Numbered from the whole stretch's first letter, positions 84-58,515 are shown. The stretch: 63,999 nt of DNA, filler included, from Stramenopiles sp. TOSAG23-6 (GCA_900128565.1; 6 parts of 6 records of this genome joined end to end with filler, not necessarily neighbours in it); one strand, 5' to 3'. The notes: a model not told the origin generated them from the letters alone. A program made the numbers and translations.

Positions 84-1135
84 ATAGCGGGTAACTTTGC
101 AACAAGAAAAACCAAAAGATAAATGCCGACTCTATTGCGGATAGTATTATGCCCTACTATGGATAATGACTTGGTGGATCTAAGAAGTTGATAGTATGTA
201 GTCATGGTAAATATGACTACAAACAATAAGGGAATATAGTAGCAAAATAACCGAAACATGTATTGTTCAAATGAAAAAAAATATTTTTTTTGTTAGGTAC
301 GAAATTTCGTACGAAAAAAAAAATTGAGATTAAAAACGTACATATCGTTTTTCCTCGTAATCCAACACCATGTTCCTCCCGCATATCCAAGAGCTCCACC
401 TGTCCATGAACCATCTTCTGCCAATGACGTTCCATATCCTCCCCAGAGTGAAAGACATAGAAAAAAAGTTGATAATCCCCAAACAATTCGATGATATTTT
501 GGTGAAGTATGAGATCCATGTTGAAGGGAAAGTCTATTATTAGCAAATCGTAATTCACAACGGATGTGATGTGCAAATACAGCTACCCAGAGAAATGCGC
601 CAACGCCAAAAAATTGCATCCAAGCTGCTGTAATATAACATATTGTTGTTGGGTCTTTTGCGTCAGATGTTCCATCTCCTAAAGTCATTAAAAATGCTAA
701 ACTGTGTAAAGCATCAGTCATTTGGAGAAACATGATTAAACGCGTTGCTAAACCTCCCCCATTTCGATTATTATGGTGAGACTTTGGTGAATGAAGGGGT
801 ATAGTTTGAATTAATTGTTCGTCGTTCGAGTTTAACGTAGCAGGTGCCGATTTTTCCAATTCTCTTTCTTCGTTCGGCGAAGCAATTGGATTAGTGGAGC
901 CTTGTGGGGTGCTATCGATAGATCGAAATGATCGTTGCACTGAGATTTCACTATCATCTTCATTTTCTGTAACTTCGCGTGGTGCTCTCTGAGAAGGTAG
1001 AATTAAAAAATAATATGTACATGTAATAAAGGCAGATGCAGATAACGATAATACCGCTCCAATAGCACTTACAATATGCAGTGTCAAGATCTGTTCTGAA
1101 TCGAAGTCGTCTTCTCTTACTTCAGTCGAATTCAT
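84..1135 (-). CDS. 7-TM GPCR, cAMP-receptor/Git3-like (3' end runs off the window)
   Basis: Exons 1135-342 and 257-84 join in frame (…KNDM|FRLF…). Hydrophobic helices, CY…A and WCWI motifs typical of CAR-like GPCRs. Confidence 0.75.
258..341 (-). mobile_element. Introner-like intron 2, GT-AT, 84 nt
   Basis: at|GTACGT…CCTAAC…AATACAT|g; restores frame. Confidence 0.85.
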
Positions 1136-1449
1136 CGCAAAGCGTATGAATCGCCGTGGAATTATANAGGCCGGTGTANAAGGTTACTGATGTTACAATA
1201 GCGTGTTCTTGGAAAGGTTTAAAAGTCTTGATAGTCAATCTTCAGAATCAACAATTGATTATAGATAATTATTACAATTTACTATTCATGACGATATCGG
1301 ATATGACCTGTTTGACATCAATCAATTTGATGATTGACAAAAAAAATGACGTTAAATTCTTAACTTAATATTTCGTGTTTGTTAGCGTATGAATTTACAC
1401 TATCGTCTTTATTTATTTTTATATGTAAAAAAAATATGAAATTNTTCAC

Positions 1450-4400
1450 TCAAGACCAAATTTCCGAATCTTGTAATCTCAAATCAGCATCCATAGTGCT
1501 GCAGTTATTAATGGCATACAATATCTTTTCATAAGCAGCATCAAAAGTTGTGTATGCAGGAAGTTTGATTGTAAAAAAGCAAGTTTGTGATCTAGGAAAA
1601 TATTCATTTGGGTTCTCTGAGGCACAATCATCTTTCATTGCTTGAATGATAAATGGATGATTCAATGAAGAAGTACTGTGAAGAAATATGTTTCAAGTAT
1701 GAAATTGATTAGGTACGATTTTTTTTTACGAAAAAAAAAAACGAAATTCATGATGAAAATATACAAACGTCAGACGGCATTCGACTACGAGCCCAAGCAA
1801 ACTGTAAGAATTGAACACGCTGTGCTGGACTGAAACGCCGTAAAACTTGCCATAAAAATATGACTTCCCTAGACTCTGTAGAAAGGCCATCTTCATACTT
1901 GGCACAAGCCGAGAGTAAATCCACATCCATGTATTGTAAAGAAATATTTTTTTTTTATTAAAAAAAATATTAGGTACAAAATTTCATATAAAAAAAAATT
2001 GAAATGAAATGAATGATATCAACGTACACGTCAGCAACTCCACAAATTAAGTCGCGCGCTTCGTCTGCAGTATAAAGCTTTAATAATCCTACAGGTACTG
2101 TCATGAGGATACCTGAGAGAACGGCACCCGTTTGAATTTGATTTTCATAACGACGAACTTTTTGAGCAAGAACTCGATATTGTTGTCTATTCGAAAGATT
2201 CACGGATTTCGATAACCCACCAGTGACAAGNGGAACATTTCGTTGATTCCCAGAACTTGANTTTACACAAAAATATGTATTGTGAAAAAATATTTGGTTT
2301 AAAAAATTGTTAGGTNTGAAATTTTCTTTTCTTTTGAAAAACAAATTTAGGTACAATATTCCTGATGAAAACGAAAAAACAAATTTAGGTACAATATTCC
2401 TGATGAAAACGTACTTGAAACAAGTTCTTCCAGTTCTGCCGAATTAGCAGCAGATGCAGTAGCAGATAAAATATCATCTAGTCCTTCATCAATCTGTCGT
2501 AAATTACTGATATCTTTATGTGATCTTTGATTACTATCATACGTCCCNACAAGATGTTCCCAAAAGTAATTAGGCAAATTTAAAGGAATTTGTACTCCAC
2601 AACGTAACGCAACACCAATGTATTGTGAAATTTTAAATTTTGTTTGAAAAAAAATCGTCAGGTACAAAATTTGGTACAAAAAAAACAAATTCGAAATTCA
2701 AAAAAATAAAACATGCATAAGCTGACCCAGAAAACGAAGAAGAGCAAGACGAAAAGGATCATTTGCAGAAGGCGATAATAAACGAATATGNTGCTCACCT
2801 CCACGTTTCATGTTTGCATTAGGTGATGGAACTAACAAATTCAAACAACCTCGATCCTGTAATTCTTCGACAATATCAGTGAAAATAGTCCTAAAAGGAC
2901 CTCCCTGGTCTACAACGCCNTCACCAAAGAGTTTGACGAAAAATGATCTTGGTTGAGGATTTTCTTTAGAACTCCAAGCTTGGCGTAATCCTGAATAGTT
3001 CTTTATATCACCAAGCGATGTCCATAATTGTCCAAACACAGAATATGTTGTGAAAAAATATTTCAGAAAAAATAATTTTTAGGTACAGAATTTCCTACGA
3101 AAAAAAACATAAATTTGAAATTCATCATGAAAACAAACATATTTAATTTCTGTAGCAAGCATGCTATTACTTCCAGGTGTTCCCATGTTGGCAAGATCTG
3201 CAGCCATTTTTCTATCTAAAGAAATTTCTTTAATTGTCATTGGTTTAGAATATTCATCCTCGGGTTCTGGTGTGGCAAGAATGGTACGTGTTTGACTTTC
3301 ATGCCAAGCTGAATGCTTTACAACTGGAAAGAGTAAATGTTTAGCACTAACAAGACCCGTATGACATCCCCATCCATTTTATGTGAAACATATTTGTTTT
3401 TTGGTTTTAAAAAAATTGTTAAGTACAGAATTTTTCTTATGAAAAAAATAAATAAATTTGAAATGATTCATGAAAACGTATATTTCTCATCAAATCACCA
3501 GCTGAAGATAATTTGATGCAATCTAAAGAACCACGAAGTAATACATTCAATTGTAATAAAACTGCCCAACGAAGTCCCGCGTCTCGGCGTCCATCCTCAA
3601 CTAAAACAGGTATATTTTGAGCTGCATTGTATATATCAATTACAGTTAATCCAAATTCACCTACGCGTACTTTGCAACCAGCGCTTTGAGATGCTCTGAT
3701 GAGAGCCTTGTCACGGGACACGGACCAAAATTTACCAAATGCACGTCTTTGAAATTTTTCGATGGACGCTATTCCAGGCACACGTACAATGGAAGGATTT
3801 GTATTTATATCTGTATTTGGAATTTTGTCGTTTGCTACTTTTGGTAGTGCTATCGAATCTGTGACACTGCGAAGTTTCGAACAAAGACTATAATCACGTA
3901 TTGTGAAAAAATATTTTAAAAAAAAATCGTTAGGTACGAAATTTCGTATGAAAAAAAATTAAATCAGAAATTCATATAAAACATACACTTAAATTGTCTG
4001 TTTCTTCACAGTAAAATGGCGATTCTTCAATCACAGTGACATTGGAACCATGAAGAAAGTCTCTTGGTAACATAGAAACCCCAGAAGTACCATCTTCTAA
4101 AATGACGAGGCGATCAATAGAGCCATTTCCAGGTGTTGAACTATTGAAGCTCACAGAACTGTCAATATGTATCCCTAATACTGTCCCTATTATAGTACGA
4201 TTTGCTGCACCATCATTCATCGAAATGTCACCTCCAATGACAGATGGTTCAGACACAACAGCAGGAATAGATATTTTACATCGAGGAAGCAATGAAACAT
4301 GATCTACTTCCATACCTCTAGATCCATCATGTATTGTGGGGAAATATGTTTACGCTTTGAAATTGGTTAGCGTTAATTTTAAAATGAATTTTAAAACGAA

Positions 4401-7400
4401 TCATGAAAACAACAAACTCACAAAAAAAGAAAATCGTTAGGTACAAAATTTCGTATGCAAAATAAATGATGAAAACGTACAACCTCAATTTCTAAAGCTG
4501 TCGTTGGTTCAGCTTGACCTTCTTTCGTTGGGTGTACTAAACCGTGAGATTGACGCCATCGTAACCATTGTTTGTACGCCTTTTCAACAAACTCAAAAGG
4601 AGGAACTCCACCTTTCACTAATGCGCGTGCAGTCGCAATAGCTAATGCAGTATTATAACACCTTTCCTNAACGAGAGGCCGTTCAACTGAAACTGACATA
4701 TCACACAATGTAATTCTATCTTCAACAACAGCAGCATCTGAGGAAAGACCAGTATTACTGCGACCACGTTGCATCATTCTTTGTTTATTACAACCACGGA
4801 AGTAAATAAATGGCCATAAACCTCTCGCGCTTGTCCTAAATCGATGCTCTGGAAAGGAAAATGCTCGACCTAAAGGTCGTCCATTACAAAAGTAAAATAT
4901 TTCACCTGCATCAGTATCCAATAATACACCTATCCTATCACCTGAACCGATAAAAGGACCATAAAAACTTTCTCTGCCCGAGGCGTCGATAGTAGCACGA
5001 AAACTAATCCAAGCCCATCGATATCCTTGAGGAAATTTATCCATAGACACACGCGGCAAACCTACGGTAACACCAATGAATAAAGATCCAGCACCTCGAG
5101 TAGTACTATCAACGATAAACTCCCAATAGTGTGAACCTCTAAGAAGTGGACGATCATGCAATGTGAAAAAAATCAAAAACAATAATTCGTCAGGTACAAA
5201 ACTTTCATACAAAAAAATATTAATAAAATTCATGACGAAAGCATACACCAATGAGAACGCAACCAGGTCCAGATGGGGCAGAGACAGATCGACCATCACT
5301 TGACATGCAAAGATTTGCACTACATCTTTGTGAATTGAGTTGATTTAGCTTTGATGTTGGTGAACATATTGACAAATCTCGCATGGTATTCAGCGCATCT
5401 GGAAAAGCTTTGAGGTTAAGTAACGATTTATGGTACGGATGATTAGGATCTTTCATTAGAGTATGAGATGGATGATACTCCTTGTGTAAAATATGCAAAA
5501 CCTTTGCAACACATCCGCGATTTTGATCTGAGCGAAGCAAATTATCTGTCGTGTTTTTTTTCTTTTGGGTATCATTTATCGTATCACTGGAAATATTATC
5601 TTTGTTCTCTTTGCCAATTTCTTTTGTTGACATTCGAACACTTCGTTTTGAAAAACTATTCACAGGAGCAGGAGGATGACTCAGTCGTAATAATGTAGCA
5701 TGCAAAGGCGATCTTTCACCTCCCCAACTTTCTCTAACAACACGAAGATTCATAAGCGCTGCAATTGATTGTGCACCTAAATTACGAACTTGTAAATCTG
5801 AATCGCCTGTAAAACTTGTCCCCGAAGCGAGACGTAGTACAGAATGACGCATAAGGTACAAACCTTGTTTATCTTCGTCATCTAATTCACTTCCCTCGTC
5901 TAAAGACTTACACGTAAACTTTATGTTAGACGCACGCACAACCGCATTAACGACATCTCCACTACTGAGATGTAATGCATTTACAGCACTTGAATGGGTC
6001 ACTTTGGCCTCCTGCATAACGATCTCTACATTAGATGATGTAATGTCTAAATCATTAATCCGGTTCTGATTATTCTTGGCCTCATTGATACATTTATTTT
6101 TTTTATTTCCATCGATAATTGTTTCTTCGCAACCTTGCTCATCATTATCGCTTGAACTACTCGAAATCCCATCAGACACAGCAGCAATATAATCCATGCG
6201 ATTTCTATTTGTATCATCAACTTTCGAAATTTTCGTATTCCGATCCGACCGTCGTTTTTTCTCTATTTCTACTAATTTTTGCTCATTTTTGAAATCTAAT
6301 TCGCCATCTTTCCAACACTGCATGCATACATCAAAATCACAACCCTGGGTACATCGAAAACTTGTTCCTGTAGAACCACAAATATCACAATAATTAGTTT
6401 GGCGTGGAGCGGATACCATGTTTGTGAAAAAATATATCATACAAAAAAATATCGTTAGGTACGGAATTTTTTTACGGAATAAAAAAAATAGGTAAAACAT
6501 TCGTTATGAAAATGTACATATTATGCATTTTGTTGCATTTGATACCCATATACGAAGATGAAGCAATCGATTCGCGACCTAATCGTTTCTTTGCNATTAT
6601 ACTTGTAATACACAATGCAAAACATAATTTTGCAGCAGATCGTCGCAGTGTCACATCCGCCCAATCTCCGCCACAGTCAATGACGAGATCAACACATTTT
6701 GATTCTATCGCTTGTAGGCGAGTGGGAATGATACAACTTCTTCCTGAATCGTCCAATAACGCTTCTGCTATAATTTGCATACCAATGGTAGCTAATTTTG
6801 GATGTAATCTAGCATTATAACACAACTTTTCGAAAATAATTTTAACACCTCCTCCCCGGGCGACAAGACTTGGCGCACATCGGTGTCTTCCCAAGAAAGC
6901 TTTGGCAGACTTAATTAGTTGATNATTCGTTTCAGATGAAAATAATTTCTGAAGCAACGGTCGAAAAAAGTCATTAGCATCCGGAAGGGNGGGCACTTTA
7001 ATTGTCTTCTCTTTCTTTTGTACATTTTCATTTGCGGCTTTGACTTTTAGAGTTTTCGTCTTTTTGATTTCGTTTTCCTTTTCAGTTGAAGCAACAACTT
7101 GTTTTTTTTGTTCTTTGCAATTTTCTGTAACATCGTTACTAACAGATTTTCTCTCGGTTTTTACTTCCTTATCATTAGATTCCTTAGACATAGCTATTTC
7201 ATTGTCCTTAGATTCCTTAGACAAAGCTATTTCCTTGTCCTTAGATTCATTAGACATGGATATTTCCTTGTCCTTAGATTCATTAGACATGGCTATTTCC
7301 TTGTCATTAGATTCATTAGACAAAGCAAGCGCCATTGCAAGCATTGCCTCTTCTTCTTCGTTCTCACTGTCTTCATTATCATCTTCAACTTGAAGGTTTT

Positions 7401-10400
7401 CGCTTTGAAGCTTGCTTTCAGCAGATTCATTCTTTGATACAGATTCGTTCGTTATAGGTATATTGCTGTGATCATCCGACTCTTGGGATAGTGCAAGGGC
7501 TTTAGCGAGCATTGCTTCTTCATCGTCACTTTCTTCATAATCCGACGTGCAATTAGATTCTACTTTATCAGTATCTTTAGATTCTACTTCATTACTATCT
7601 TTAGATTCTACTTCATTACTATCTTTAGAATCTACATCATTGCTATCTTTAGATTCTACTTCATTACTATCTTTAGATTCAGCCATTACGGCTGCCAATT
7701 GTGAAGCTAATTGCTGCGCAACAACGTCTGAGCTAAAATTATTCACGTAAGTGTCACCAGGGGATTGAGTTGTTGTCGAAATATTAGACAGAGCAGCGGG
7801 GGTCACATTGGTGGGAATGGATGAACATTCAGATACAGAGTCGCCATCTTCATCGTTTTTACTAACCAAATCTTCTTCACCTTTTTTTTCTAAAATATCT
7901 TCAGTCTCCGGATTATTATTATCATCACTATTTTGACCATTTCTTCCATTTTCTTCGCTTTCGTTTTCATCAGCAACATCGGGAAATATATCAAATCTAT
8001 CTCCATTGGCAAAGACAACATCATTCTCCATATTTTCGATGCTATCATCCTTACCATCGTCGTTACACTCTTCTTCAATTCGGCGTATGCATTCAATCAA
8101 GTCATATTGATTCAAACCAAGTGTACTGGGGGTATCATCATTTTCTATTTTGCTGCCATTGATGAAAAATCCTAATGATTCTGGGTCTTCACCAGCACGC
8201 CGCGCAAATACACGAAATACTTTAGACATTTTCGTTCGTTGGAGTACTTTGAAATGGGTTTCTTTTCCGTCAGCCGAATCAAGGACCCTAATTGTAATAC
8301 TATTACTTTGATTACTAATACGATTATTTCGATGTCCAATTCTAGAAGCCCCACCTTGATTCATTCCCAATAATTGCGCGATGTGTAGTTGTGCCATCTG
8401 AGCCATTAGACCTCCTCCACCTTCACCACTTTCCATATTTTCAAAAACAGACATTAAAGTCTCCCCATGTATTTTGGAAAAATATTTCAAAAAAATCTAA
8501 AAAGAATTGTTAGGTACAAAATTTCGTACGAAAAAAAAACTCGAATGTAAAAAAAAATAAAACCTACATCTATATTCCCTCGAAGTCTAGGAGGCATATT
8601 TATCGAATTACTAGCACCGCCAGCACCGACAAATTGGCGATGAAATATATTCAGTCTTCTATTCGTTTCTCTTCGATATGTTCTTGGTTGTGAGGAAGAT
8701 TTTAATTTTTTATTCGCATCTTCCGATTTTTTTTTCGCCTCTGCTTTCACATTGAGCTCTGTCTCACGGTCAAGAAATCTCCCAGATTGATAGGTTTCCA
8801 TTCCAACACAGTGCCAGGAATTATTAGACTTTGTTTTGGTACCCGAAGAGTTCATATATTGAAAACGAAATGTTCTAAATTCCTTTCCCGGTTGGACAAC
8901 AATTGAATTTGACAAACCAAAGCCAATTAATTGTTCTTTCGCCACAGTAAATATATTACTTTTTTCATAGTTATATTCAGGTTTATTACTAGGATCATTC
9001 TTGGATGAAACTAATTCGCTAATAAAACCAATCGAAACATCTGCAGTACATCCATCATTATGGTGTATAAATATTTGTGAATTGATGTATTGTGGAAAAA
9101 TAGTTCAAAAAAAAAAACTAAAATTTGTTAGGTACAAAATTTCGTAAGAAAAATAAATTCGTAATTGAAAAAAATTAAAACATACATACCAATTGTACCA
9201 GGACACATTTTTAATATTCCCTTATACGCAACATTGTCAAAAAAATGATGTGCTAAGTCACACCAATCAATTTTAGAAGAGACCTCAGTTAAAACCGAGG
9301 TGTTGTATTGGACAGGTGCTTCAGTTTTTATTAAACATTTTGAAGCACAAGCTAACAGTAACTCATTTCTTTCTTTCTTTAATTTCATAGAAGAAATCGC
9401 AAGCAAAAGCTCAAAAAGTGATTTTAAGTATGCAGAAGGAGGTTTTGGTCTCTCTTTACATCGTTGTTGCTCAAAACACATCCACAATCGTTCTTCACTC
9501 GGAAGAGATTTTGATATTTCTAAAAGACTCATCCCAATATTCTTTATATCAAGTACTTTCATATTATTTTCATGATCAGACATTGAATTGGTTTGTGCCA
9601 GATTCAACATATCGATTCCAGCATTTAACATTTGTGATATAAGTAAAAACACAGGCTCTTTTAAAGTCATATTAGACCTTTTAGTACAAATGACTAAAGT
9701 GTTACGCAAATCAATACTAGCGCTTACAGCATAAGCAGCTTTGAAACCAATACAATCTTTCTTCTGTGATAAGCATAATAAAGCATCAAGAATGCGTACA
9801 GCGAAGAAAACACGAGGTTCACCAACAGCTGACGCGTCACTTATACCATGCTTTCCAGATACTCGACTATTTGATCGATGTTTGTGTAAATCCCAAGAAC
9901 ATTTCTGATATTTTGGATGAACTGCCGCAAGGCGTAACATTGTGGTACATGTAGCAACTATCGATGGCCCTGCACCCAAAGCAACTAACGTAGGGAGAAT
10001 TCCTAGAGGGTCTTCATTATTTTGCACATAATTCGAATTCGTGTGGATCATCGTGGATACAGACCCAACCCTAGGAGTCATTATGATCGAAGAACGACAG
10101 AGTACAAGTCGTGCAAAAGTAGGTGTCCAAAGTGGTGCGCTTAATACGTCACGTAGACTTGAATTTACTTCGATATCATGAGCTTTTGGAAAAATATTTC
10201 AAAAAAAAATCGTTAGGTACAAAATTTCGTACGCAAAATAAATTCGAAATTGAAAAAAAATAAAACATACATGAGCTTTTGTAAGTCTCAGTATACCAGC
10301 AACAATTCGACGAGTGTGTATCGTAACTAAGGCTTCTTCTAACATACATAGAGCTTCGGATGCATACTCCAAAGAAAGTTTTTCTTCATCCCACCCAACA

Positions 10401-10691: not shown

Positions 10692-10745
10692 ATGTATTTT
10701 GGAAAAATATTTCAAAAAAAAAATTGTTAGGTACAAAATTTCGTA
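10692..10745 (-). mobile_element. Introner-like intron 16 (3' part)
   Basis: …CCTAAC…AATACAT|g; contig ends inside. Confidence 0.8.
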
Positions 10746-10845
10746 NNNNNNNNNNNNNNNNNNNNNNNNNNNNNNNNNNNNNNNNNNNNTTAATTAATTA
10801 ANNNNNNNNNNNNNNNNNNNNNNNNNNNNNNNNNNNNNNNNNNNN
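10746..10845. other. Artificial contig linker N-TTAATTAATTAA-N
   Basis: All-frame stop 12-mer at 10790-10801 between N runs; repeats every ~10.8 kb. Confidence 0.97.
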
Positions 10846-10866: not shown

Positions 10867-10924
10867 ATTTGCTCTCTCCTTTAAATAAAGTCTTTCGGAG
10901 AAAATTTTCTGTTGAAAAGTCATC

Positions 10925-11628
10925 ATGCCTCGCGAAATTATCACTTTGCAGGTAGGCCAATGCGGTAATCAAATTGGAATGTCATTCTGGGAGCAGCTCT
11001 GTAATGAGCATGGTATTCGTCCAGATGGATCGCTTGAGGACTTTGCACAATTAGGAATGGATCGTAAAGACGTATTTTTTTACCAAGCTGACGACGACCA
11101 CTACATTCCACGTGCACTTATGATGGATTTAGAACCTCGTGTTGTAAAAGGAATTCAAAATGGTCAATACCAGAAGTTTTTCAATCCTGAAAATATTTTC
11201 ATGTCTACTGACGGTGGTGGTGCAGGAAATAACTGGGCAAGTGGTTATCACCAAGCCGAGGGTGTTCATGAAGAATTAATGGACATGATCAACCGAGAGG
11301 CCGATGGTAGTGAAAGTTTGGAGGGATTTGTTCTGTCTCATTCAATTGCTGGTGGGACAGGTTCTGGTATGGGATCTTATCTTTTGGAAAAACTCAATGA
11401 CCATTTTCCAAAGAAACTAATTCAAACGTATTCTGTATTTCCTAATCAAGATGATGCCGATGTCGTCGTACAGCCGTATAACTCCATGTTAACCCTCAAA
11501 CGTCTCACTTTGAATGCTGATTGTGTCATGGTATTAGATAATACCGCACTCAATCGGATTGCCACAGATCGGTTACATATCGCCAATCCAACAGTCAATC
11601 AACTGAATAGTCTTGTAGCGACTGTCAT
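10925..11628 (+). CDS. TUBG1: Gamma-tubulin, first exon only
   Basis: [35 protein letters not shown]. Ends at the intron donor at 11629; the expected continuation is absent. Confidence 0.95.
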
Positions 11629-11720
11629 GTATGTTTTATTTTTTTTCAATTTCGAATTCATTTTTCGTACGAAATTTTGTACCTAACGATTTTTTTTTGA
11701 AATATTTTTTCAAAATACAT
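11629..11720 (+). mobile_element. Introner-like intron 17, GT-AT, 92 nt, joins two different genes
   Basis: Consensus-like copy between gamma-tubulin and PI4K exons. Confidence 0.85.
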
Positions 11721-41993: not shown

Positions 41994-42068
41994 GTCAGGG
42001 TGGTGTAGTCGGTTTATCACGTTTGCTTTACACGCAAAAGGTCCTGGGTTCGATTCCCAGTCTTGATA
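41994..42068 (+). tRNA. tRNA-Val (anticodon TAC)
   Basis: Acceptor GTCAGGG/TCTTGAT, D arm TGGTGTAGTCGGT, anticodon arm TTTGC-TTTACAC-GCAAA, T loop GGTTCGATTCC, downstream T runs (Pol III terminator). Confidence 0.93.
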
Positions 42069-42238
42069 CTCTTTTACTTTTTTATTATTAATTTTTTCTA
42101 TTTTTTTTTAAATTTTTGTATTTAGTACCGGGATACGTACTAAAAAAAAAACGACCTGTAAAACGTAAAAAAACGTCCAGAAAACCGTCGTAGTATGTAA
42201 CAAGAAACAGAACACTTCATTTACAATTCTTTTATACA

Positions 42239-43181: not shown

Positions 43182-43281
43182 NNNNNNNNNNNNNNNNNNN
43201 NNNNNNNNNNNNNNNNNNNNNNNNNTTAATTAATTAANNNNNNNNNNNNNNNNNNNNNNNNNNNNNNNNNNNNNNNNNNNN
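43182..43281. other. Artificial contig linker
   Basis: TTAATTAATTAA at 43226-43237. Confidence 0.97.
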
Positions 43282-43335
43282 GGTACAAAATTTCGTACGA
43301 AAAAAAAATCAAATTTGAAAAAAACTAAAACATAC
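43282..43335 (-). mobile_element. Introner-like intron 27 (5' part)
   Basis: at|GTATGT…TTCGTACGAA…; contig ends inside. Confidence 0.8.
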
Positions 43336-44163: not shown

Positions 44164-46932
44164 ATGGCAGGGCCTCAAGAAAAAAAGGCTGTTGCCATTG
44201 AAGTTGAATCTAATGATAAAAAGAAGAAAGGTAAGAAAAAAGGTAAGAAAGGAAAAAAGGCGAAGGAAGCTGTAGTAGAACTATCAGAAGAGGATGAGGC
44301 AATGAAGAATGCGCTCGAGTTGGCTGTTCGACGTGTACAGGATAAGTCTGCTGTGGTACAAAAAGCGGCACTTAAAACTCTTCGCGACACAATTAAGTCT
44401 GCAACTTCAGCGATGACTTCTGTTCCAAAACCATTAAAATTCCTTGCTCCCCATTACCGTAATCTGGTGAGTTATTTTGACGAAAAGTTGGTGACTCAAT
44501 CGGCAAACAAAACCGAGCTAGCTGACATTCTTGCCCTTGTTGCGATGAGTATGTCCAACGGAAAGAAATATAACCGAGATAGTCTCCGATTTAAACTTCA
44601 AGGCTCCCGAGGAGATTTAGGAGCTTGGGGAGATGAATTTGTTCGCAATCTTGCCGGTGAGTTAGGCCAGGAATATGGAGAAAGAACAAGCTCTGAACCT
44701 CCTGTGGATACAGCGGATCTCCTAGTCTTAGTTGATGAAGTATTGACTTTTAACATGAACCACAATGCGGAAGCAGACTCTGTGGACATGCTTATGGAAG
44801 TCCAACAGTTATCGCGCCTTCTTGATGAACGTCTTACATCAAAAATGGATGCTCGTAACGCGGAAAGACTCTGCAACTACTTAATGCGTTGTGCTAAATA
44901 CGAAAGTGACCCTGATGAGCGCCAAAATGTGTATAAAACTTCGTTCGAGCTATTTATGAAACACAAAAAAGCGTCTGATGCTCTTCGATGTGCCATTAAA
45001 ATGAATAATGATGAGTTAGTGAAACGCGTTTTTGAGATGCCATCTGTAAAATCAGACACCCCGATGCGTAAGCAGCTTTGTTTTATTCTCGGTCGACAAA
45101 GAGCTTTCACGTTTCAGTTAGATGAAGATGAAGATGATGATGCATCCGAGTTGAACGAAATTATTGGGAACTATTCGATATTATCTGATCATTTTAGGCG
45201 TCTTGCTACAACTTTAGACGTACAAGATGCAAAGACTCCCGAGGAGGTGTATAAATCTCATTTAGGTGACTCTGGACGAACTGGTCTTAATGCAGATGGA
45301 GCAGCTGTAGAGTCTGCTAGACAGAACGCAGCATCGACATATGTTAACGGTTTCGTTAATGTTGGTTATGGTAAAGATAAATTGATAACTGCTCAAGGCG
45401 ATGATGGTCAGAACGTCTGGTTGTATAAGAATAAGGATCGGGGTATGCATAGTGCAGCAGCATCTCTAGGTATGGTATATCAATGGGATGTTGATGAAGG
45501 TTTTGGCGCGCTTGATCGTTTCCTCTATGTTGACAATATCAATATCAAAGCTGGGGCAGTTCTTGGAATCGGTGTTTGCAACGCTGGTGTATATAATGCT
45601 GAAGTCGATGCCGCTATTGGACTGTTACCTGACTATCTCACAGATGATACAAAACTTTCCAGTGATGGAAATAGTCTATTAAAAGTCTCTGCTTTGTTAG
45701 CTTTTGGACTTTCATATGTTGGCACATGTAGAGAAGAAGTTCAAGACCTTGTTGAACCATTTATTGAAGGTGAGGACATTAGCTTTGATGTCACAGCTAT
45801 TGCTGCTATATCATTAGGTATGGTATTTGTTGGTTCTGGTGATGAAGATGTTGCCACTTCCTTGATCGAACGCTTACTCTCAGCTAGTGATGCTGAATTA
45901 GATACCCCTGGTGCACGATTTCTATGTCTTGCTGTTGGACTCGTCTTTCTAGGTCGCGAGGAAGCTGCCGATGCAACACTTGAGGTGTTTAAGACAATTG
46001 AAAATAAGATAGGACACTTTGCAATTCTCACTGTCAAGACCTGTGCATATGCCGGCAGTGGTAACGTTCTTAAAGTTCAAGAAATGTTACATGTTTGTGC
46101 TGAACATCTCGATGAAAAAAATGCTGCATATCATCAGATGGTTGCCACTCTTGGCGTGGCTCTTCTTTCTGTAGGTGAAGAAGTAGGCTCTGCGATGGCA
46201 ATGCGAACAATGGAGCATTTATTACAATATGGAGAATTGCCTGTAAAGCGTGCTGTTCCTCTAGCCATTGCTCTTTTACACGTTTCAGACCCTGACTTCA
46301 GTGTAGTAGATACTGTTAGTAAGTTGAGTCACGATTCGGATGATGCCGTTGCACAGAATGCCATCCTTGCACTTGGTATTATATCTGCTGGTACAAATAA
46401 TTCCCGTGTCGCTGGTCTTCTTCGCCAGCTTTCTTCTTTTTACAAGAAACAGGCGAATCACTTGTATATTGTACGCATTGCGCAGGGTTTGTTACACATG
46501 GGTAAAGGGTTAGTTACGTTAAATCCTGCCCATTCCGGTGGTCTTCTTGCTTCGAACGCATCATTGGCCGGCCTTCTGGTAGTTCTTTTTGCTGCATTTG
46601 ATCAAAAGAATACTTTACTTGACAAAATGCATTATCTGTTGTACTCTTTGTGCACTGCCTGTGTGCCTAGAATGCTTGTTACACTTGATGAAGAACTGAA
46701 TCCTCTGAAGGTACAGGTACGTGTCGGAGAAAGTGTAGACGTTGTTGGACAAGCAGGAAATCCGCGTGCAATCACTGGTTTCCAGACATTTGATACCCCT
46801 GTGTTGATGTCCACGGGAGATCGCGCAGAATTGGTTGGTGAGGAATATGAACCTTTGACGAGTGTAATTGAAGGCTTTGTCATTTTAAGAAAAAAGAAAA
46901 ACAAAAACACTGACGGGGAGTCGAAGGAGTAA
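44164..46932 (+). CDS. RPN1: 26S proteasome regulatory subunit RPN1/PSMD2
   Basis: SMTSVPKPLKFL, SARQN, YAGSGNVLKVQ, GQAGNPRAITGFQT; intronless. Confidence 0.97.
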   Translation: MAGPQEKKAVAIEVESNDKKKKGKKKGKKGKKAKEAVVELSEEDEAMKNALELAVRRVQDKSAVVQKAALKTLRDTIKSATSAMTSVPKPLKFLAPHYRNLVSYFDEKLVTQSANKTELADILALVAMSMSNGKKYNRDSLRFKLQGSRGDLGAWGDEFVRNLAGELGQEYGERTSSEPPVDTADLLVLVDEVLTFNMNHNAEADSVDMLMEVQQLSRLLDERLTSKMDARNAERLCNYLMRCAKYESDPDERQNVYKTSFELFMKHKKASDALRCAIKMNNDELVKRVFEMPSVKSDTPMRKQLCFILGRQRAFTFQLDEDEDDDASELNEIIGNYSILSDHFRRLATTLDVQDAKTPEEVYKSHLGDSGRTGLNADGAAVESARQNAASTYVNGFVNVGYGKDKLITAQGDDGQNVWLYKNKDRGMHSAAASLGMVYQWDVDEGFGALDRFLYVDNINIKAGAVLGIGVCNAGVYNAEVDAAIGLLPDYLTDDTKLSSDGNSLLKVSALLAFGLSYVGTCREEVQDLVEPFIEGEDISFDVTAIAAISLGMVFVGSGDEDVATSLIERLLSASDAELDTPGARFLCLAVGLVFLGREEAADATLEVFKTIENKIGHFAILTVKTCAYAGSGNVLKVQEMLHVCAEHLDEKNAAYHQMVATLGVALLSVGEEVGSAMAMRTMEHLLQYGELPVKRAVPLAIALLHVSDPDFSVVDTVSKLSHDSDDAVAQNAILALGIISAGTNNSRVAGLLRQLSSFYKKQANHLYIVRIAQGLLHMGKGLVTLNPAHSGGLLASNASLAGLLVVLFAAFDQKNTLLDKMHYLLYSLCTACVPRMLVTLDEELNPLKVQVRVGESVDVVGQAGNPRAITGFQTFDTPVLMSTGDRAELVGEEYEPLTSVIEGFVILRKKKNKNTDGESKE

Positions 46933-51704: not shown

Positions 51705-51736
51705 ATAAATTATACTCAAGATATTTTAATTTTTAG

Positions 51737-53867
51737 TCAACAAAACTCTTTCAATGCATTATCTCTCAGGGTACCCCTAGCTACTTTGCAAAATGTGTTG
51801 ACCAGGTCTTTAAAATGGGCCTTGATTTTTTTCGATTGTCTTTCAATTCTCGGATTGTAGTGCATATTATTCTGTCGGATTTGAATTTCTTCGCTTGCCA
51901 ACTTGTATACTGAAGTAAGAAATATTTCCCGTGCAGCTGGAGAAAGTTCCGTTTTCAGTATGAGATCATTCGGTTTACCACCAGATGCTTCTGTTGCAAT
52001 GGCTCTACACGCTGCGGCTAATGCATGTGAACTTAAAGCATCAAATAACCACTTCTTGTTCTCTTCAAAAAAACGCATGACAAAAGCCCATAAAAGATTT
52101 GCTAAATGCGGCCAAAGGTCATGTGGGCTCCGTACGGAAATTGCCATTATAAGAGATTGGGCCAGATTCTCGCCACATGATGGTGATTTTATAACTGCAC
52201 TTATAATGTGTGCGTACGGTTGTAATTTCTTTGTATGTAGTTTCATAGCTAATTCTAAAAAACCTATGTATTTTGGAAAAATATTTCAAAAAAAATCTAA
52301 AAAAAATTGTTAGGTACAAACTTTCGTACGAAAAAAAAATGAAATTTGAAAAAAAATAAAACATACATAACTTCTCGAGTTGCCATTTTTTCTTGATTTT
52401 GTATGAGAGCAGTTCCAAGTTGAAATAATTGGAGAAGTTTTCTAGGAAATTCATTCGGAGCATCAGTCGGGAGGACTGTAAATAAAGGTAATGGGCAAAA
52501 CATGAGAAAACGCTTTGACAAGTCAAATAATCCTAGTAACAAATCTGGATCTCGAAAATTCAGTGTACCATGTATTTTGGAAAAATATTTCAAAAAAAAA
52601 TCGTTAGGTACAAAATTTCGTNNNNNNNNNATAAATTCGAAATTGAAAAAAATTAAAACATACATTCGGTTGCTGAGCTCTCTGAAAAGTTTGCTTAATG
52701 ATAATATTTAGGACATTACCAAACGCTATTTGTGTTTCTTCGGTATCACTAAATAATTCGACAGCAACGGCTATACAATCCAAGCAAATTGGTAAATCTA
52801 AAGAAGAGTAAAAAGCAATTAAATGTTCCATTATTGTTGCAAGTTTATCTTTGACACAACTTCGTAATGAATGAAACATATTTTTGTATAAAAGACACAT
52901 TACACACGAAATCGCTATATTTTCTCTATATTTCACTGCAATGGTATTTAATAGATTCCAGCAACCTTTTTGTAGTATATGCAATAATGGAGATTCGCCT
53001 TTTTTTCTCTGTCGATTTGACATTTCTAAATATTGTACCATTGATGAAAACACTTCGAGTTCGTCTTTAACGATAATTTCGTCTTGATGTGTGTTTGTTT
53101 TCATTGCAACAGCAATTCTTTGTAATAAAGGCGAACAAATCACATCTAAACTTTCCGTAGAATGTTGTATAGACATCCCCGAGATGCACATTGCGATACC
53201 TTCTGATACAAATATTCGCATTTTTGTATGAGTGTGTGAATTACAAAATTTATTAAGACACCCAGCTAATGACACTACTACCGATGGTTTTGATATGTAA
53301 CCTCTGCAAGTTACACATAATTGTCGAATGGATTTCGCTGCAACCATTGACGACACAGGAACTTCTATGGCTTTAAGTAAGTACGTAAAAGCATGTTTGA
53401 TTAGATCAAGTTTTTTTGTCTTTCGTGATGCCAATAAAAACCACTTTGACATCATACCAAGTAATACTGAAACACTTCGAACTATAAGAGGATGTGATGA
53501 ATAAATATTTGAACCAGTATTGTTGATTTGAAGTACAAAGTCTCGTATTTTTCCATTAATCTGGTCAGTTGTAGTATTATTTTCTGCATTTGTTTTTACA
53601 GAACTAATAACTTCTTTTATAATACACGAAAGTACAAAAACACAAGATTCTGCTCGGTTCCAATGACTTACATCACACGCATTTGCAGTATTTAGAAGAT
53701 TATCTAGCATTCCAAGCTGTAAAATGTTGAACATTGATATTAGAACATCTTGACAACCTGGAGGGCCTATGCGGAAAGCTCCATCATCAACGTCAGGAAA
53801 TAAATCCTCCTCTTCAAAATCTATATCAAGAGTGAAACTTTCTTTAGCATCAAGAGAGCATTGAACT
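51737..53867 (-). CDS. Importin-beta-family HEAT protein, transportin-3/importin-13-like (5' truncated)
   Basis: Exons 53867-52664, 52569-52367, 52265-51737; W..AES.VF, AAKSIRQLC and DPDL motifs. Confidence 0.7.
52266..52366 (-). mobile_element. Introner-like intron 29, GT-AT, 101 nt
   Basis: Gives REVI|GFLE. Confidence 0.85.
52570..52663 (-). mobile_element. Introner-like intron 30, GT-AT, about 94 nt (contains Ns)
   Basis: Gives QQPN|GTLNFRDPD. Confidence 0.85.
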
Positions 53868-53922
53868 ATGTATTTTGGAAAAATATTTCAAAAAAAAACT
53901 AAAATTTGTTAGGTACAAAATT
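53868..53922 (-). mobile_element. Introner-like intron 31 (3' part)
   Basis: …CCTAAC…AATACAT|a; contig ends inside. Confidence 0.8.
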
Positions 53923-54022
53923 NNNNNNNNNNNNNNNNNNNNNNNNNNNNNNNNNNNNNNNNNNNNTTAATTAATTAANNNNNNNNNNNNNNNNNNNNNN
54001 NNNNNNNNNNNNNNNNNNNNNN
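53923..54022. other. Artificial contig linker
   Basis: TTAATTAATTAA at 53967-53978. Confidence 0.97.
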
Positions 54023-54116
54023 ATTTTGGAAAAATATTTCAAAAAAAAATCATTAGGTACAAAATTTCGTACGAAAAAAAAATCGATTTTTTTGTTAAAA
54101 AAAAAATAAAACATAC
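54023..54116 (-). mobile_element. Introner-like intron 32 (nearly complete, 3' end cut)
   Basis: tt|GTATGT…CCTAAT…CCAAAAT. Confidence 0.8.
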
Positions 54117-55957
54117 AAGCTGTCGACGTCCAGGTTGTTTTAGTCGAGGGCGGCAATACTTTTGCCCAGGTCGGCATAAAATTATTCCTGCAGCACCTGC
54201 TAGAGCTCCTATAAATTTTTGTTTTGTACTCATTTTTGAATGTAACTCAATAAAACTTCCAGAATTTGAATCATTATTCAGATGATTTGTTCCCATTAAA
54301 ATTTCTTTTGTCCTTTCATCAGCTATTCGTTTATTAGCCCAATAATTTTGAAATCTTTCCACGCCTGGTGGTTTCCCTGCTTCAAGATACGCTCTATCTG
54401 GTCTTTTTACACCTTGCATTTCTTGATATTGGCTCTCGTACATATATATTGTAAAAAAAAAAAAAAAAAAAACATTTGTTAGGTACAAAATTTCGTATGA
54501 AAACCAAAAAAAAAAATAAATTTGAAATTCATAATGAAAACGTACATGAGCAATATCTTTGAACCTAGGCTCAAATTGTTGCTTCACAAAAGACTGTACA
54601 GCATTTCTATTGGATTGCATTTCATTTTGTAGTCTTTGCTTTAAATTCTCAGAGTTATCAACGGTAAGCGAATAGTCAGTGAAATGGTTTTTCAATGATT
54701 GTATCGGTACTTTTTGTACAGATTCAATATTAAATGGATTAGGGTTAGGGTTATTATTTGTCATTGAATTTAGAGATTTCATTGATTCGTCTATTTCCAT
54801 ATATACATTACCAAGGTCATCGGTATCAACGTGTTTACTTGGATTCATATTGGCTTTCAATTCAATATAAGAATATCCTGGTCCTGGAATTGGGCTGTAT
54901 TGTCCTGCAGCCACTGGGACTCCACCTGCATACCCTCGAAAATATATATTTTGGAAAAATATTTCAAAAAAAAAAAAAAAAAAAATTGTTAGGTACAAAA
55001 TTTCGTACGGAAACAAAATTCGATTTTTTTGTAAAAAAAAAAATAAAACATACATGAGGCAGGACCCGGGTATCCTTGGGTCCATCTGGATGAATAATTT
55101 GGATATGCATCACTATAAAAATCACGCTGTGGAAATCCAATTTCTCTTTCAATTAATTCCATATTTAAAATACACGCAATACATTGAGCACTTGATGCAT
55201 TTGCGAGTTTTTCGAATTCTTTGTCAACCTCATAGTTTCTCTCATGTACTTCAGGTCCCCCTGGTGTCAAAAAATCTTTAGCTGATTTTCCAATAAGATT
55301 AACTAATGGAGTAAAAGCAGTTTTCACATCATTACCAGCCTTTTCCATCTTATCAACAATTCCGGTACTCTGTTGCTGAGCGTCTGGCTGAGCGTCTGGC
55401 TGACCGTCCGTGGTCGCAGCATTGTTCGTTTGGGACGTGCCGGACGTGCCGCCCGACGGGCTCGACACTGTTTGAGTACTTAGTAATTTTCTTTGAGTAG
55501 AGGAAATTTTGTTTGTAATCATATTTTTTGTTTCAGCTTTACCAAGTTGGTCGCGTTCATAGACTAAAGCTGTTGCAGCGTTTTTAATGAGTTTGGATAC
55601 TTTTTCAGTGTTATTGAATAAATCTATAGCATTATTTGCTTCCATGACCTTTACAGTATCTACTGCTGAGCCACCGATATCATGATTTTGTGCCAATGCG
55701 ACTTGCAAATGGACAATTTGACGCCGTTTTTCGTTTTCTTTGTCTGCAATTCTTTCCTCTTGTTGAATACGTTTGTTCAATTTCCCTCGCCAGGAGAGCA
55801 AACTCAATTCTGAAGGACTTTGCCTGTTCAACTCAGGATTTTCCATGTTTCGAATCAATCTCCCTCCGTTCCCCAAGAAAACATCGTCCTCTGAAGATAA
55901 TACTTTCGAGAAAAGGAATGAAAGTAATATGTATTGAAATCTCGTCACTGTTCTCAT
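54117..55957 (-). CDS. Secreted hypothetical protein (3' truncated)
   Basis: Exons 55957-55054, 54943-54546, 54443-54117 in frame; signal peptide; CIAC motif. Confidence 0.7.
54444..54545 (-). mobile_element. Introner-like intron 33, GT-AT, 102 nt
   Basis: at|GTACGT…CAATATAT|atg. Confidence 0.8.
54944..55053 (-). mobile_element. Introner-like intron 34, GT-AT, 110 nt
   Basis: at|GTATGT…AAATATAT|at. Confidence 0.8.
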
Positions 55958-56537
55958 TGTTTATTTCAATATACTTTCTTGAGTACTTGCAGTGGCAGTA
56001 CTAATGTAGTACTATCTGATTCAAAATTATCTAAACAACGATTGACTTATTAAGACTCGGCGTCTGAAGGTTAACAATGCAGTATGTGCGAGTTCTTGAT
56101 ATATAATTCAAAACCTTATGAAAATCATATATACACGACGCGCAATACCGCCAATACCGCATCAGTATTTTTGAAAAATATTTCAAATTATCGGGGATTT
56201 TTCTATTTTTTCTTTTTGTCTTTCGTGTGAATTTTTTTGACAAACCTGTTTTATAAACCTACTGTGAGAGAGAGTGAGAGAGAAATACATTTTATACAAA
56301 ATACTATAATTGATATTTTTATTCAATAAAGTGAGAGAGATATTTTTAGGATGATATTGTGATGATCAGATATAATGTCATGAATCATGATGATTATTTT
56401 TTCAAAACGGTAGAATAAAGTCATTGGGCCAAATATGATTTATCATAATATATAAAAAAAAGTAAAAAAAAAATATTTAATCTTAGTCATTGGTAGTGTT
56501 CTACGTATCTTTGGATTCCGTAGCATTATTTTGTACT

Positions 56538-58515
56538 TTAGTCATTGGGCCACATATGTATTGGACCTCGACCATTAACAAGCAACGGTAATCCACCTCC
56601 AGATAAATTATAATCTGTTCGGCCATTATTTCTAGCTCTAAACGGAATGTATCGTGAAATTAAAAAAAAAAAAAAATTATTAGGTATAAAATTTGGTACG
56701 AAAAAAAAATTAGATAAGAAATATTGAAAACGTACATGCCTAAAGCTGAAAATTTCTGCTTCAATCTGCCATCTGTGTTTTGAGGTTCTCCAAATATGGA
56801 ATCGCCAGGGCCTGAGGCATGTATTGTACGAAAATATTTTTGAAAAAAAATCGTTAGGTACGGAATTTCGTATGAAAACCAAAAAAAATAAATTTGAAAT
56901 TCATCATGAAAACGTACATACATATCGGAAGAACAAAGTATACAACACTGATCTTTTGTTGCTTCAATACCAAATGAAGTCCATTGTTGAGTGGCCAAGT
57001 CAAATAGTAATCCTTGATTTAATTTTTGCTCTTCATTTTGTTTTTCTTGAAATTTGGCTTTATTACCTAAATAATTTTCAGCACGAAATTTCATATCATT
57101 ATGATTAGTACTACTACTACTACTACTACTACTTTTCTCGAGGTAAGCTGATTGCATTATACGATAGCCATTTTCATCTGCCATTGGTGGCATTTTGAAG
57201 TGACTGTCCTTTAATGGCTTTGTTTCAGGAATAAATTGTGCGAAAATATTTTTTTTTTGTACATTCGTTAGGTTGAAAAATTTCATCGTAAAAAAAAATA
57301 AAAAAAAATCAAGTTTGAAAACACTTGAAAAAAAATCGTTAGGTACAAAATTTCGTACGAAAAAAAATAAATTTTGAAAACGTACATAAAAGCTTCAGGG
57401 CATATCGTACAACAACTAGGCTTTCGTAATGTTTTTAATTTTCTATCTTGACCAGCCATTGGACATCTTGGTTTTTCTGGATCTTTTGAAGTCCCTTGTG
57501 CCTTTAAATCGCTCTTTTCTTGTGCTTCAATTTTCTCCTGTTCACTCATTCCACTTTTTACTTTAATTTTTGTTGGCATATTTGCTCTATGAATCTTTGC
57601 AGTGTTATAAGTAGCGTAAGTAATATCTGTAGGTGGGAAAGCATCGGCACTACACATGGTACAACAAATTGAAGGAGAATTTTTTGCTACCTTTACTTTG
57701 TCTAGAACTAAAGGACACACCCAGGTTTTTTTTACTTTATCCCATTTTGGATATGCTTCTACACGTTTCGGTTTTTTTCCGGTCGTTTTTGATGTTTTTG
57801 ATGTTTTTGTCGTTTTTGTCGTTTTAAATCCTGTTTTAGTTGTTGTTGTTGTTGTTGCTGTTGTTTGAGCAGTCTTTGCTGTTTTAATATTTGTTTTAGA
57901 TGTTTCAATCTCTGTAAAACGCGGCGTTTCTCTTATTTCCATTGTACTATCGTGACTGCTCCCATCCAAGAATGATGTATGTCTCATCAAAATAGCATTA
58001 TCTTTATCATCTGTGCTTAAGTCAGAACTTCCGTTAATCATCGCATCGAAGTGTTTTTTATTATTTGAATCCTTTGAAATGTACCATTTACCAAAGTTAT
58101 TTAAAGTTTTGGTATGTAACTCGGAGGAAAGTTCAAGGGCAATTAATTGAGCATGAAATCGGTATGGACAAATTTGGCAACAGTTTTCTTTTCTTATTTC
58201 AAATGGGTTAAAACTTTTTTCCTTTCGAGCGCCTTCGTTAGTCGCACTTCCGTACTTTGAAATTGAATCCCAAGCATCCTTATCTAGTTTGCCTTTATGT
58301 ATTTTATTGTTCCATCTGATAAGTGTTTCGCCAGCAGATCTATCAGGCTCTATTTGCATCTTTAATGACTTGGTTCCGAGTGGAAGACGCGCTTGATACT
58401 CTCTTGGCAATTTGAACCTACCCGGTACTCCCGGTAAAAGCTTGTTTGATAATGTTTCCTGTGTTATGAACAGTTCAAGAAGACAAATACAAAAGAAATG
58501 TTTTACAAACGACAT
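56538..58515 (-). CDS. Secreted Cys-rich protein with four CCxxC motifs
   Basis: Exons 58515-57386, 57230-56918, 56818-56736, 56646-56538; CCQIC, CCTMC, CCTIC, CCILC. Confidence 0.72.
56647..56735 (-). mobile_element. Introner-like intron 35, GT-AT, 89 nt
   Basis: at|GTACGT…CCTAAT…GATACAT|t. Confidence 0.82.
56819..56917 (-). mobile_element. Introner-like intron 36, GT-AT, 99 nt
   Basis: at|GTACGT…CCTAAC…AATACAT|gcc. Confidence 0.85.
57231..57385 (-). mobile_element. Introner-like intron 37, GT-AT, 155 nt, composite
   Basis: at|GTACGT…CCTAAC…CCTAAC…AATTTAT|t. Confidence 0.78.

Follow-up and report, generated by a model that had tools for sequence, protein, structure and literature searches.

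A single family of short repeated introns with non-AG acceptors, probably introners, in a stramenopile assembly

The DNA analysed here is a stretch of 63,999 nt (the window) from the assembly of Stramenopiles sp. TOSAG23-6 (GCA_900128565.1). It consists of six contigs of about 10.7 kb each, joined by N44-TTAATTAATTAA-N44 spacers at 10746-10845, 21590-21689, 32428-32527, 43182-43281 and 53923-54022, and all counts given for the window rest on about 63 kb of a fragmented assembly. Its genes include a HECT/SPRY gene, a C5 DNA-methyltransferase gene and an RPN1 gene, and at least ten of its genes contain copies of an element of about 100 nt. An earlier reading of the sequence alone (the sequence-only reading) had proposed that the introns of this DNA are one repeat family with transposon-like ends, of introner or miniature inverted-repeat transposable element (MITE) origin, in which a 2-bp duplication, usually of AT, became the acceptor. 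The copies are introns, their acceptor is non-AG, and every recognisable intron of this 63-kb sample belongs to the one family, a single frame break at 21049-21083 aside.

The repeated element and its behaviour as an intron

The copies were collected by a repeat search followed by a profile from 20 curated copies, used in two nhmmer rounds (E<=0.01). This yielded 38 matches, the best with an E-value of 2.6e-18, which were curated to 36 separate elements: 29 complete ones and seven cut by contig or window ends, distributed over at least ten genes and all six contigs. The complete copies are 84-155 nt long (median about 99; 3,000 nt summed), and a looser search (E<=10) adds only one marginal match (E 4.4). 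On a six-frame map of open reading frames (ORFs), all 36 are genic and sense to the flanking ORFs.

The sense-strand consensus can be written as exon..AT / GTAYGTTTT - T-rich body - CGTACGAAATTT(C/T)GTACCTAAC - T-run - (GAAATA)TTTTT(C/T)CA(A/C)AATACAT / exon. It thus opens with a yeast-like donor, GTAYGT, carries a central palindrome (GTACGAAATTT(C/T)GTAC) and a branch-site motif (TACCTAAC) followed by a T-tract, and closes, 32-46 nt past that motif, with a conserved terminus (..CA(A/C)AATAC) and two further bases, usually AT. The two 5' subtypes that had been read from the sequence are real: 16 of the 33 donors start with GTATGTTTT and nine with GTACGTTTT, the other eight being variants that include one GC and one AT donor. 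The exon dinucleotide preceding the donor is AT in 22/29 complete copies (25/33 donors overall) and the final exon base is T in 28/29 (32/33), in agreement with the 22/30 and 29/30 counted earlier. The terminal intron dinucleotide of the complete copies is AT in 25, AG in two, and TT and GT in one each.

At the centre of the element (e.g. in 258-341, 3896-3986 and a metagenomic copy described below) stands a 16-nt palindrome, GTACGAAATTTCGTAC, which is perfect in a few copies, 258-341 among them. Its variants are mostly of the CpG-to-TpG kind (TTTCGTAC to TTTTGTAC, GTACG to GTATG), and, since a C5 DNA-methyltransferase gene (30307-32427) lies in the same window, methylation-driven decay of the palindrome is possible. 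In five of the seven truncated copies the break lies at or beside it. Folding of whole copies as RNA gave nothing better than shuffled sequences (z -0.5 to -2), with the ends unpaired in all six copies folded; the sole recurrent fold among these six is a central 6-bp hairpin. By eye, in the alignment, the hairpin variants are mostly disruptive or CpG-to-TpG changes and no compensatory pairs are seen, and no RNA structure is therefore claimed for the element. A description of the element as a dimer of two units of about 45 nt was also weighed by eye and dropped, the sequence being too low in complexity.

Several lines of evidence identify the copies as introns. On the ORF map, a copy sits at each interruption between consecutive long ORFs of one strand, the exception being that at 21049-21083. 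Excision from the GT to the last base of the element restores one reading frame at 28/28 testable sites: the HECT/SPRY gene becomes a frame of 2625 codons over 13 sites (the next best frame having 71), the methyltransferase gene one of 571 codons over four sites, and six further genes give frames of 338, 411, 544, 561, 644 and 685 codons. Successive HECT exons are collinear with the Pfam HECT profile (48-101, 111-191, 195-246 and 254-304), and the methyltransferase exons cover positions 3-79 and 126-292 of the Pfam DNA_methylase profile with a 51-residue exon between them. Thus, few residues at most can have been lost or added at the junctions.

Expression data bear on the same question. Fourteen public runs match part of contig 1, and those placed on 2317-6923 comprise two non-poly(A) metatranscriptomes (X7 and X8), a poly(A) metatranscriptome (X10) and a seawater DNA metagenome (X4). 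Most of the joints listed on this stretch arise from one copy matching another and were set aside, and stretches without RNA cover are counted as no evidence. In the poly(A) data, a contig of 212 nt and depth 4 (X10 record 1) matches 3482-3591 and 3274-3375 but omits 3376-3481, the predicted intron to the base; a DNA contig (X4 record 10) spans 3111-3909 with this copy included, and X4 records 13 and 14 span neighbouring copies. In a further poly(A) contig (X10 record 7) the first four letters are loose and the rest match 5246-5516, from which it follows that the transcript changes exactly at the donor of the copy 5156-5246 and retains the two pre-donor exon bases (5247-5248). Among near-identical transcript-derived proteins of near or longer lengths, none was found for exon 4481-5155 that reads the junctions discriminating between registers. 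Sense orientation, frame restoration and the removal of one copy in RNA but not in DNA together show that the copies are introns, and we infer that the spliceosome is the agent that cuts them.

That these introns are one family by descent, with a similarity extending beyond splice signals, is well supported. Pairwise identity has a median of 0.68 and a maximum of 0.965, against 0.58 and 0.695 in controls with shuffled interiors; within the GTATGTTTTA subtype the median is 0.785, and the copies at 11629-11720, 52570-52663 and 10178-10270, which lie in unrelated genes, are 0.94-0.965 identical, an indirect sign that their gain may have been recent. When a model was restricted to the interior (first 9 nt and branch motif left out) and trained on the 14 copies of contig 1, it recovered, at E<=0.01, 13 of the 18 copies with a 5' interior on the five other contigs and matched no other site of the window. 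The sequence-only reading had named similarity limited to splice signals as an outcome that would count against it, and this result is the reverse. A model of the 3' interior alone, which is too short and T-rich, found 0/36 copies. The variants of the two ends are linked: CCAAAA-type ends occur in 7/13 GTATGTTTTA-type copies vs 0/16 others (our alignment count), and three copies in different genes (ending at 31717, 55053 and 54116) have a ACAAAAAAATCGA insertion in common. Hence the repeat family proposed from the sequence stands, with 36 copies in unrelated genes on six contigs, donor and branch signals of its own, and subfamilies.

The family is also met outside the assembly. A 3.2-kb contig of an unrelated metagenome record (L003) carries a copy (2476-2579) with the borders at/GT...ACAT/g, the removal of which opens a frame of 225 codons. 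Just downstream of this intron-bearing gene, at about 2270-2340 in minus-strand numbering, are short CCCTAA/TTAGGG telomere-like motifs. A scan of public metagenome contigs with a 19-nt core motif gave four loci, of which L003 alone holds a real copy; the same scan gave one chance match among genome contigs (in a bacterial metagenome-assembled genome) and none among viral contigs. In the seawater metagenome, about 2049 contigs fall on the 4.6-kb stretch 2317-6923, nearly all of them on copies, and their summed depth, which is not a copy number, reaches about 30,000 over copies vs 6-9 over exons. This pattern fits a very high-copy repeat. So do the ends of the assembly: as had been noted from the sequence, seven of the 12 contig or window ends fall inside a copy (1, 10745, 21690, 32528, 43282, 53922 and 54023).

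The non-AG acceptor and the register of splicing

AG is the near-universal 3' end of introns. Here, 20 of the 28 testable introns are free of AG from the branch motif to the intron end; of the eight internal AGs only two are in frame, and splicing to the first AG of the exon that follows would keep the frame at only 6/28 sites. With AG as acceptor the frame would be lost at most sites, and the acceptor is therefore non-AG. The RNA-confirmed intron at 3376-3481 (ATACG...AAAAT) has a 4-nt ambiguity, no register of which gives GT-AG or AT-AC. AG can serve at the position of AT, as the two copies ending in ACAG show. The claim of an acceptor dinucleotide at the element's end that is not AG and usually repeats the exon bases before the donor is accordingly borne out, both for the AT ends (25/29) and for the equality of the two dinucleotides (21/28 sites).

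Within these limits the register most probably runs GT...AT, with the cut before GT. It is preferred because GTAYGT stands in this standard register in 31/33 donors, because the intron's two opening bases would vary if the register were shifted to the left, and because the transcript contig with both pre-donor bases (X10 record 7) excludes a cut 2 nt upstream at 5156-5246. The conserved ..CA(A/C)AATAC block and the distance of 32-46 nt from the branch motif are candidate marks of the acceptor.

The individual copies and their genomic setting

All copies lie on the minus strand except 11629-11720 and 21690-21758, which are on the plus strand; in the borders given here the last two exon bases are in lower case. 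The form at/GTACG...ACAT is shown by 258-341 (84 nt), 32299-32406 (108 nt), 56647-56735 (89 nt) and 56819-56917 (99 nt; the best nhmmer match), and its counterpart at/GTATG...ACAT by 9085-9185 (101 nt), 30592-30690 (99 nt; in the methyltransferase gene), 31364-31463 (100 nt), 52266-52366 (101 nt) and the diverged 40337-40439 (103 nt). Close to these are 6418-6517 (100 nt, at/GTACA...ACAT), 8467-8567 (101 nt, at/GTAGG...ACAT), 54444-54545 (102 nt, at/GTACG...ATAT) and 54944-55053 (110 nt, at/GTATG...ATAT). Other exon bases precede the donor in 1929-2027 (99 nt, gt/GTACG...ACAT), 33216-33314 (99 nt, ct/GTATG...ACAT) and 5156-5246 (91 nt, gt/GTATGC...GCAT), the copy at whose donor the poly(A) contig fit ends. 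Unusual donors are found in 2618-2716 (99 nt, at/GCATG...ACAT; the GC donor), 3043-3138 (96 nt, at/GTTTG...ATAT; with a 4-nt flank repeat ATAT) and 3376-3481 (106 nt, at/ATACG...AAAT), the copy absent from the poly(A) RNA contig and kept in the DNA contig. Unusual acceptors distinguish 1671-1764 (94 nt, tt/GTATA...ACTT; within the HECT domain), 3896-3986 (91 nt, gt/GTATG...ACGT) and the two copies with a canonical AG end, 31619-31717 (99 nt, at/GTATG...ACAG) and 32771-32873 (103 nt, at/GTACG...ACAG).

Three copies are composite: 2275-2414 (140 nt, aa/GTACG...ACAT) contains a tandem duplication (about 38 nt), 4329-4480 (152 nt, tt/GTACG...ACAT) consists of a 3'-truncated copy and a full one, and 57231-57385 (155 nt, at/GTACG...TTAT) has two branch-site motifs and a 5-nt flank repeat, TTTAT. 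In 10178-10270 (93 nt) the final 11 nt (CAAAAGCTCAT) equal the last 11 exon nt preceding the donor and stand in place of the usual ..AAAATACAT end; the only explanations we can offer are that the duplication was longer here or that the upstream junction was copied during repair. The complete copy at 52570-52663 (94 nt) has 9 N at the palindrome. Among the truncated copies, the 5' part at 1-83 (donor G at 83, flank ..gctAT/GTATG) has (CAAAAA)n in place of its 3' part as far as the window start; 3' parts remain at 10692-10745, where the contig end cuts inside the central palindrome, at 21690-21758 (contig start) and at 53868-53922 (contig end); and 5' parts remain at 32528-32581, where the contig start cuts inside the palindrome, and at 43282-43335 (contig start). 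The copy at 54023-54116 (tt/GTATG) lacks only its last few bases, at a contig start.

The copy at 11629-11720 (92 nt) stands at the joint of an assembly or amplification chimera (10916-12652, plus strand), upstream of which the Tubulin profile is matched over positions 1-189 of 190 and downstream of which PI3_PI4_kinase is matched from profile position 117, in frames that disagree. As the tubulin GTPase exon (by eye probably gamma-tubulin) and the second half of the kinase domain belong to unrelated genes, the two flanks of this copy are not a pair and it was left out of all flank tests.

The window has a G+C content of 31-42% and is densely packed, new ATG/signal-peptide starts lying within 200-350 nt past stops. 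Intron density is very uneven: the HECT gene has 14 introns in about 9.3 kb and the region 54023-58566 holds seven in 4.5 kb, while five ORFs of 2.6-7.8 kb each are without introns (12775-20559, 25261-30057, 34326-39581, 44164-46929 and 61080-63638). One of the latter is the RPN1 gene (44164-46932, plus strand; 922 codons), whose stramenopile relatives are about 50% identical and whose best named match is a EukProt model with a label starting GSMAST32. We take this label to denote a MAST-3 assembly, and on this reading of our own the host reads as a MAST-3-like stramenopile. An RPN1 protein search found no independent near-identical protein of the host. The EukProt model itself (P0002), a database gene model of the window's RPN1 ORF, is letter-identical in 716/718 residues, with ten in-frame pieces (36-105 nt) dropped, several of which have GT..AG-like borders; because relatives conserve the dropped residues, the gene has no introns there and those of the model are spurious.

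Some further features of the window may be recorded. Its sole Rfam match is a tRNA-Val (anticodon TAC) at 41994-42069 (plus strand), in an intergenic gap. Within the HECT gene, coding tandem repeats at 7129-7700 have units of 24 and 33 nt that encode SKDSNEVE-like repeats, and a 1599-codon ORF has tandem units of 9 to 12 nt at 26800-27430, in a Lys/Asp/Ser-rich stretch. The frame change at 21049-21083 (minus strand) lies between the long ORFs 20496-21083 and 21049-21633, with no copy of the family there; it is probably an assembly error of 1 nt, though it may be a short intron outside the family.

Origin of the family and comparison with known systems

The flanks of the copies are informative about how they arrived. 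The correlation of left and right dinucleotides that had been suggested as a check is found in the window: the pre-donor and the terminal dinucleotide are the same at 21/28 sites, vs 18.2 on shuffling (P 0.023). The sole TT end (1671-1764) and the sole GT end (3896-3986) are each preceded by their own dinucleotide, as had been claimed (P 0.008 in a post hoc test), and flank repeats of at least 4 nt occur at 4/28 sites (4, 4, 5 and 11 nt), vs 0.82 expected (P 0.004). The base at exon -3 is a pyrimidine in 24/33 cases and that at exon +1 a purine in 24/32, against 43% pyrimidine and 57% purine in two large exons, so that the target looks palindromic, i.e. a symmetric Y-AT-R. We infer that the 2-bp repeat is a target-site duplication made by insertion at a preferred Y-AT-R site, the duplicated AT serving as the acceptor.

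These observations lead to the proposal, to which we give a probability of about 0.7, that the copies are introners in a MAST-3-like stramenopile, inserting at Y-AT-R with a 2-bp duplication whose second copy ends the intron. An element of about 100 nt would spread through genes, bringing with it a donor, a branch site and a fixed 3' terminus; its insertion at Y-AT-R would duplicate 2 bp, usually AT, and the second copy would become the acceptor. The spliceosome would then cut before the GT and after the second dinucleotide, about 32-46 nt past the branch motif, and removal of the element together with one copy of the repeat would restore the reading frame exactly. A bolder version holds that a single introner burst replaced essentially the whole intron set of a MAST-3 lineage, and that its spliceosome routinely uses an AT, and occasionally a TT or GT, acceptor set by the element terminus and the 2-bp duplication, with a classical donor and branch site. 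This is tentative, and we rate it at somewhat less than even odds.

A number of points weigh against the proposal or limit it. The claimed inverted ends, ATGTAT...ATACAT, are seen in the GTATG subtype; once the flanking AT is discounted they shrink to GTAT/ATAC in the element proper and in the GTACG subtype to GTA/TAC, and such ends of just 3-6 bp do not pair in the RNA folds of an element that is T-rich on the sense strand and has no fold-back. The longer autonomous copy with the same ends and a transposase, which the sequence-only reading suggested looking for, did not turn up: Pfam finds no transposase domain in the window, nor is there an autonomous copy, and 0/36 copies are antisense or intergenic. 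The last figure is weak evidence, as with an intergenic share of about 9% (our estimate) only about three intergenic copies would be expected. The test on the TT and GT ends re-uses the cases that prompted the idea; the flank repeats vary from 2 to 11 nt, unlike the product of a transposase with a fixed stagger; and 7/28 sites mismatch (gt, gt, tt, aa and ct before ...AT, and at before ...AG twice). At 19/28 sites AT/AT is alike, and these sites alone do not separate duplication from a preferred target, a flank motif common to all copies being graded 'ambiguous' for duplication by the survey method as described in part of PMC9860276. AT also occurs earlier in the element's tail (GAAATATTTTT), and so does not by itself mark the acceptor. 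Direct RNA support consists of one junction and one donor end, from contigs and not raw reads, and unspliced pieces occur in the non-poly(A) runs X7 and X8 (5122-5320 and 2344-2461), which could be pre-mRNA or DNA. Finally, the statement that all introns belong to one family rests on 63 kb, with the break at 21049-21083 lacking a copy. The earlier claim of a MITE with a 2-bp duplication is consequently only partly supported: locus-specific flank repeats (P about 0.004-0.02), the TT/TT and GT/GT cases and the four longer repeats speak for it, and the uniform AT/AT sites, the mismatches, the short ends without fold-back and the missing transposase do not.

Several of these points are what would be expected if the same introners, with the same non-AG splicing, did not spread by transposition of a MITE with terminal inverted repeats but by reverse splicing of an excised intron into a different transcript, with reverse transcription and recombination to follow, or by the capture of element DNA or cDNA through microhomology at double-strand breaks. 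On such an account the AT before the donor would be a preferred exon context and the longer repeats would be repair microhomology. The exclusively genic and sense placement of all 36 copies, their strand asymmetry and lack of fold-back, element boundaries that are the splice sites themselves, flank repeats of 2, 4, 4, 5 and 11 nt and the want of a transposase in the window would all agree with it. Yet a staggered cut is the better match for the TT/TT and GT/GT ends and for the symmetric Y-AT-R target, the composites at 4329-4480 and 57231-57385 look like insertion or recombination between copies at the DNA level, the expectation of about three intergenic copies makes their absence a weak argument, and selection alone explains a sense bias, as in published introners. 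We therefore regard a route of this kind as unlikely, if worth keeping in mind.

Other readings concern the splicing or the very mobility of the copies. Were the register shifted two bases to the left, to AT...AC introns of a kind known to be accepted by the minor (U12) or the major spliceosome, the mRNA would be the same for the 20 AT/AT copies and the 3' end would be AC in 25/29. In U12 introns the donor consensus is RTATCCTT and the branch site lies only a short way from the 3' end. The donor here is GTAYGTTTT and the U12 consensus is absent, the branch-to-end distance of 32-46 nt is longer than the short one of U12 introns, the first two intron bases would become variable (AT, GT, TT, AA, CT) where the standard register has GTAYGT in 31/33 donors, a transcript contig contains the pre-donor bases 5247-5248 and the RNA-confirmed junction at 3376-3481 gives AC in no register; such a shift is highly improbable. 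Scarcely any better is the prospect that these are ordinary old introns, made alike by strict splice signals and T-rich low complexity with no mobile element involved. It is true that conservation is highest at the donor, the branch motif and the 3' terminus, that the model of the 3' interior found no copy, and that AT-rich composition yields 0.58 identity even when shuffled. Against this stand the recovery of 13/18 copies elsewhere, and nothing else, by the interior model from contig 1, the linkage of 5' and 3' variants into subfamilies together with the insertion common to three copies, the 94-96% identity between copies in unrelated genes, the assembly breaks or mis-joins inside copies (7/12 ends and the chimera at 11629) and the piling up of metagenomic contigs on them (a depth of about 30,000 vs 6-9, again not a copy number). 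Removal from DNA, as with the internal eliminated sequences of ciliates, and not from RNA, would account for a 2-bp direct repeat flanking each copy of which one is kept; with DNA contigs spanning copies (X4 records 10, 13 and 14), a poly(A) RNA contig without one, a strict sense orientation (36/36) and donor, branch-site and T-tract signals in place, it is barely conceivable.

Should the proposed introner origin with a duplicated acceptor be true, heterotrophic marine stramenopiles would join the lineages with genome-scale creation of introns by a mobile element, and the host would provide a natural system with AT for AG next to a textbook donor and branch site, which bears on the choice of 3' splice sites. 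There are practical consequences too: gene prediction on the assumption of GT-AG introns will fail for this host, as the P0002 model exemplifies, and the family causes assembly breaks and mis-joins inside its copies. In the literature covered, subscription papers and supplements lying outside the search, we found none that treats MAST-3 or its named members together with introners or non-canonical introns; the parts of PMC5778133 and PMC12614181 covered hold nothing on introners in MAST-3, and 'stramenopil' is absent from the main texts of two pan-eukaryote surveys (PMC9860276 and PMC12130899), whose passages covered show no stramenopile or MAST entry and whose supplementary species tables were outside the search. 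The operational definition in the main texts of these surveys and in work on fungal introner-like elements, namely similar introns in unrelated genes, describes the present family.

Among known systems, the introners of Micromonas pusilla and Aureococcus anophagefferens, as passages of PMC11282704 present them, have GT/GC-AG ends, recognisable terminal inverted repeats, many ordinary introns alongside and, in Micromonas, a 3-nt target duplication. The present family resembles them in its many near-identical, short, sense and non-autonomous introns in unrelated genes of marine picoplankton, and in drawing one splice site from the element and the other, as proposed, from the duplicated target. 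It differs in the AT acceptor, the 2-nt repeat, the inverted ends of 3-6 bp and the membership in the family of all introns seen (36/36). With the introner elements of Amoebophrya, described in PMC7789003 as having inverted repeats of 8-20 nt that pair the ends in a hairpin, inconsistent terminal dinucleotides and a host in which U1 has apparently been lost, it shares repeated introns, short direct repeats over the exon/intron borders, non-canonical ends, a marine protist host and the want of a transposase to explain them; unlike those, its ends are unpaired, its donor classical and its acceptor consistent. The end-pairing stem of the nonconventional introns of euglenids and Amoebophrya was seen in none of the six folded copies. 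A comparable departure at the 3' end is presented by the MITE-derived introns of the tunicate Fritillaria borealis, for which the portions of PMC11282704 and bioRxiv 10.1101/2025.08.15.670264 concerned report AG-AC and AG-AT ends and many families. There too the non-AG 3' splice site copies the exon bases before the intron (TAC giving ...AC there, AT giving ...AT here), and the host spliceosome routinely removes such introns. Fritillaria, however, is an animal with a non-canonical donor, whereas here a single family in a stramenopile protist combines a classical donor, GTAYGT, with a classical branch site. If the bolder version of the proposal is right, the host would join Fritillaria and Amoebophrya as one more independent example of a splice-site rule rewritten by transposon-derived introns, and would be the cleanest of them, because only the 3' step has changed.

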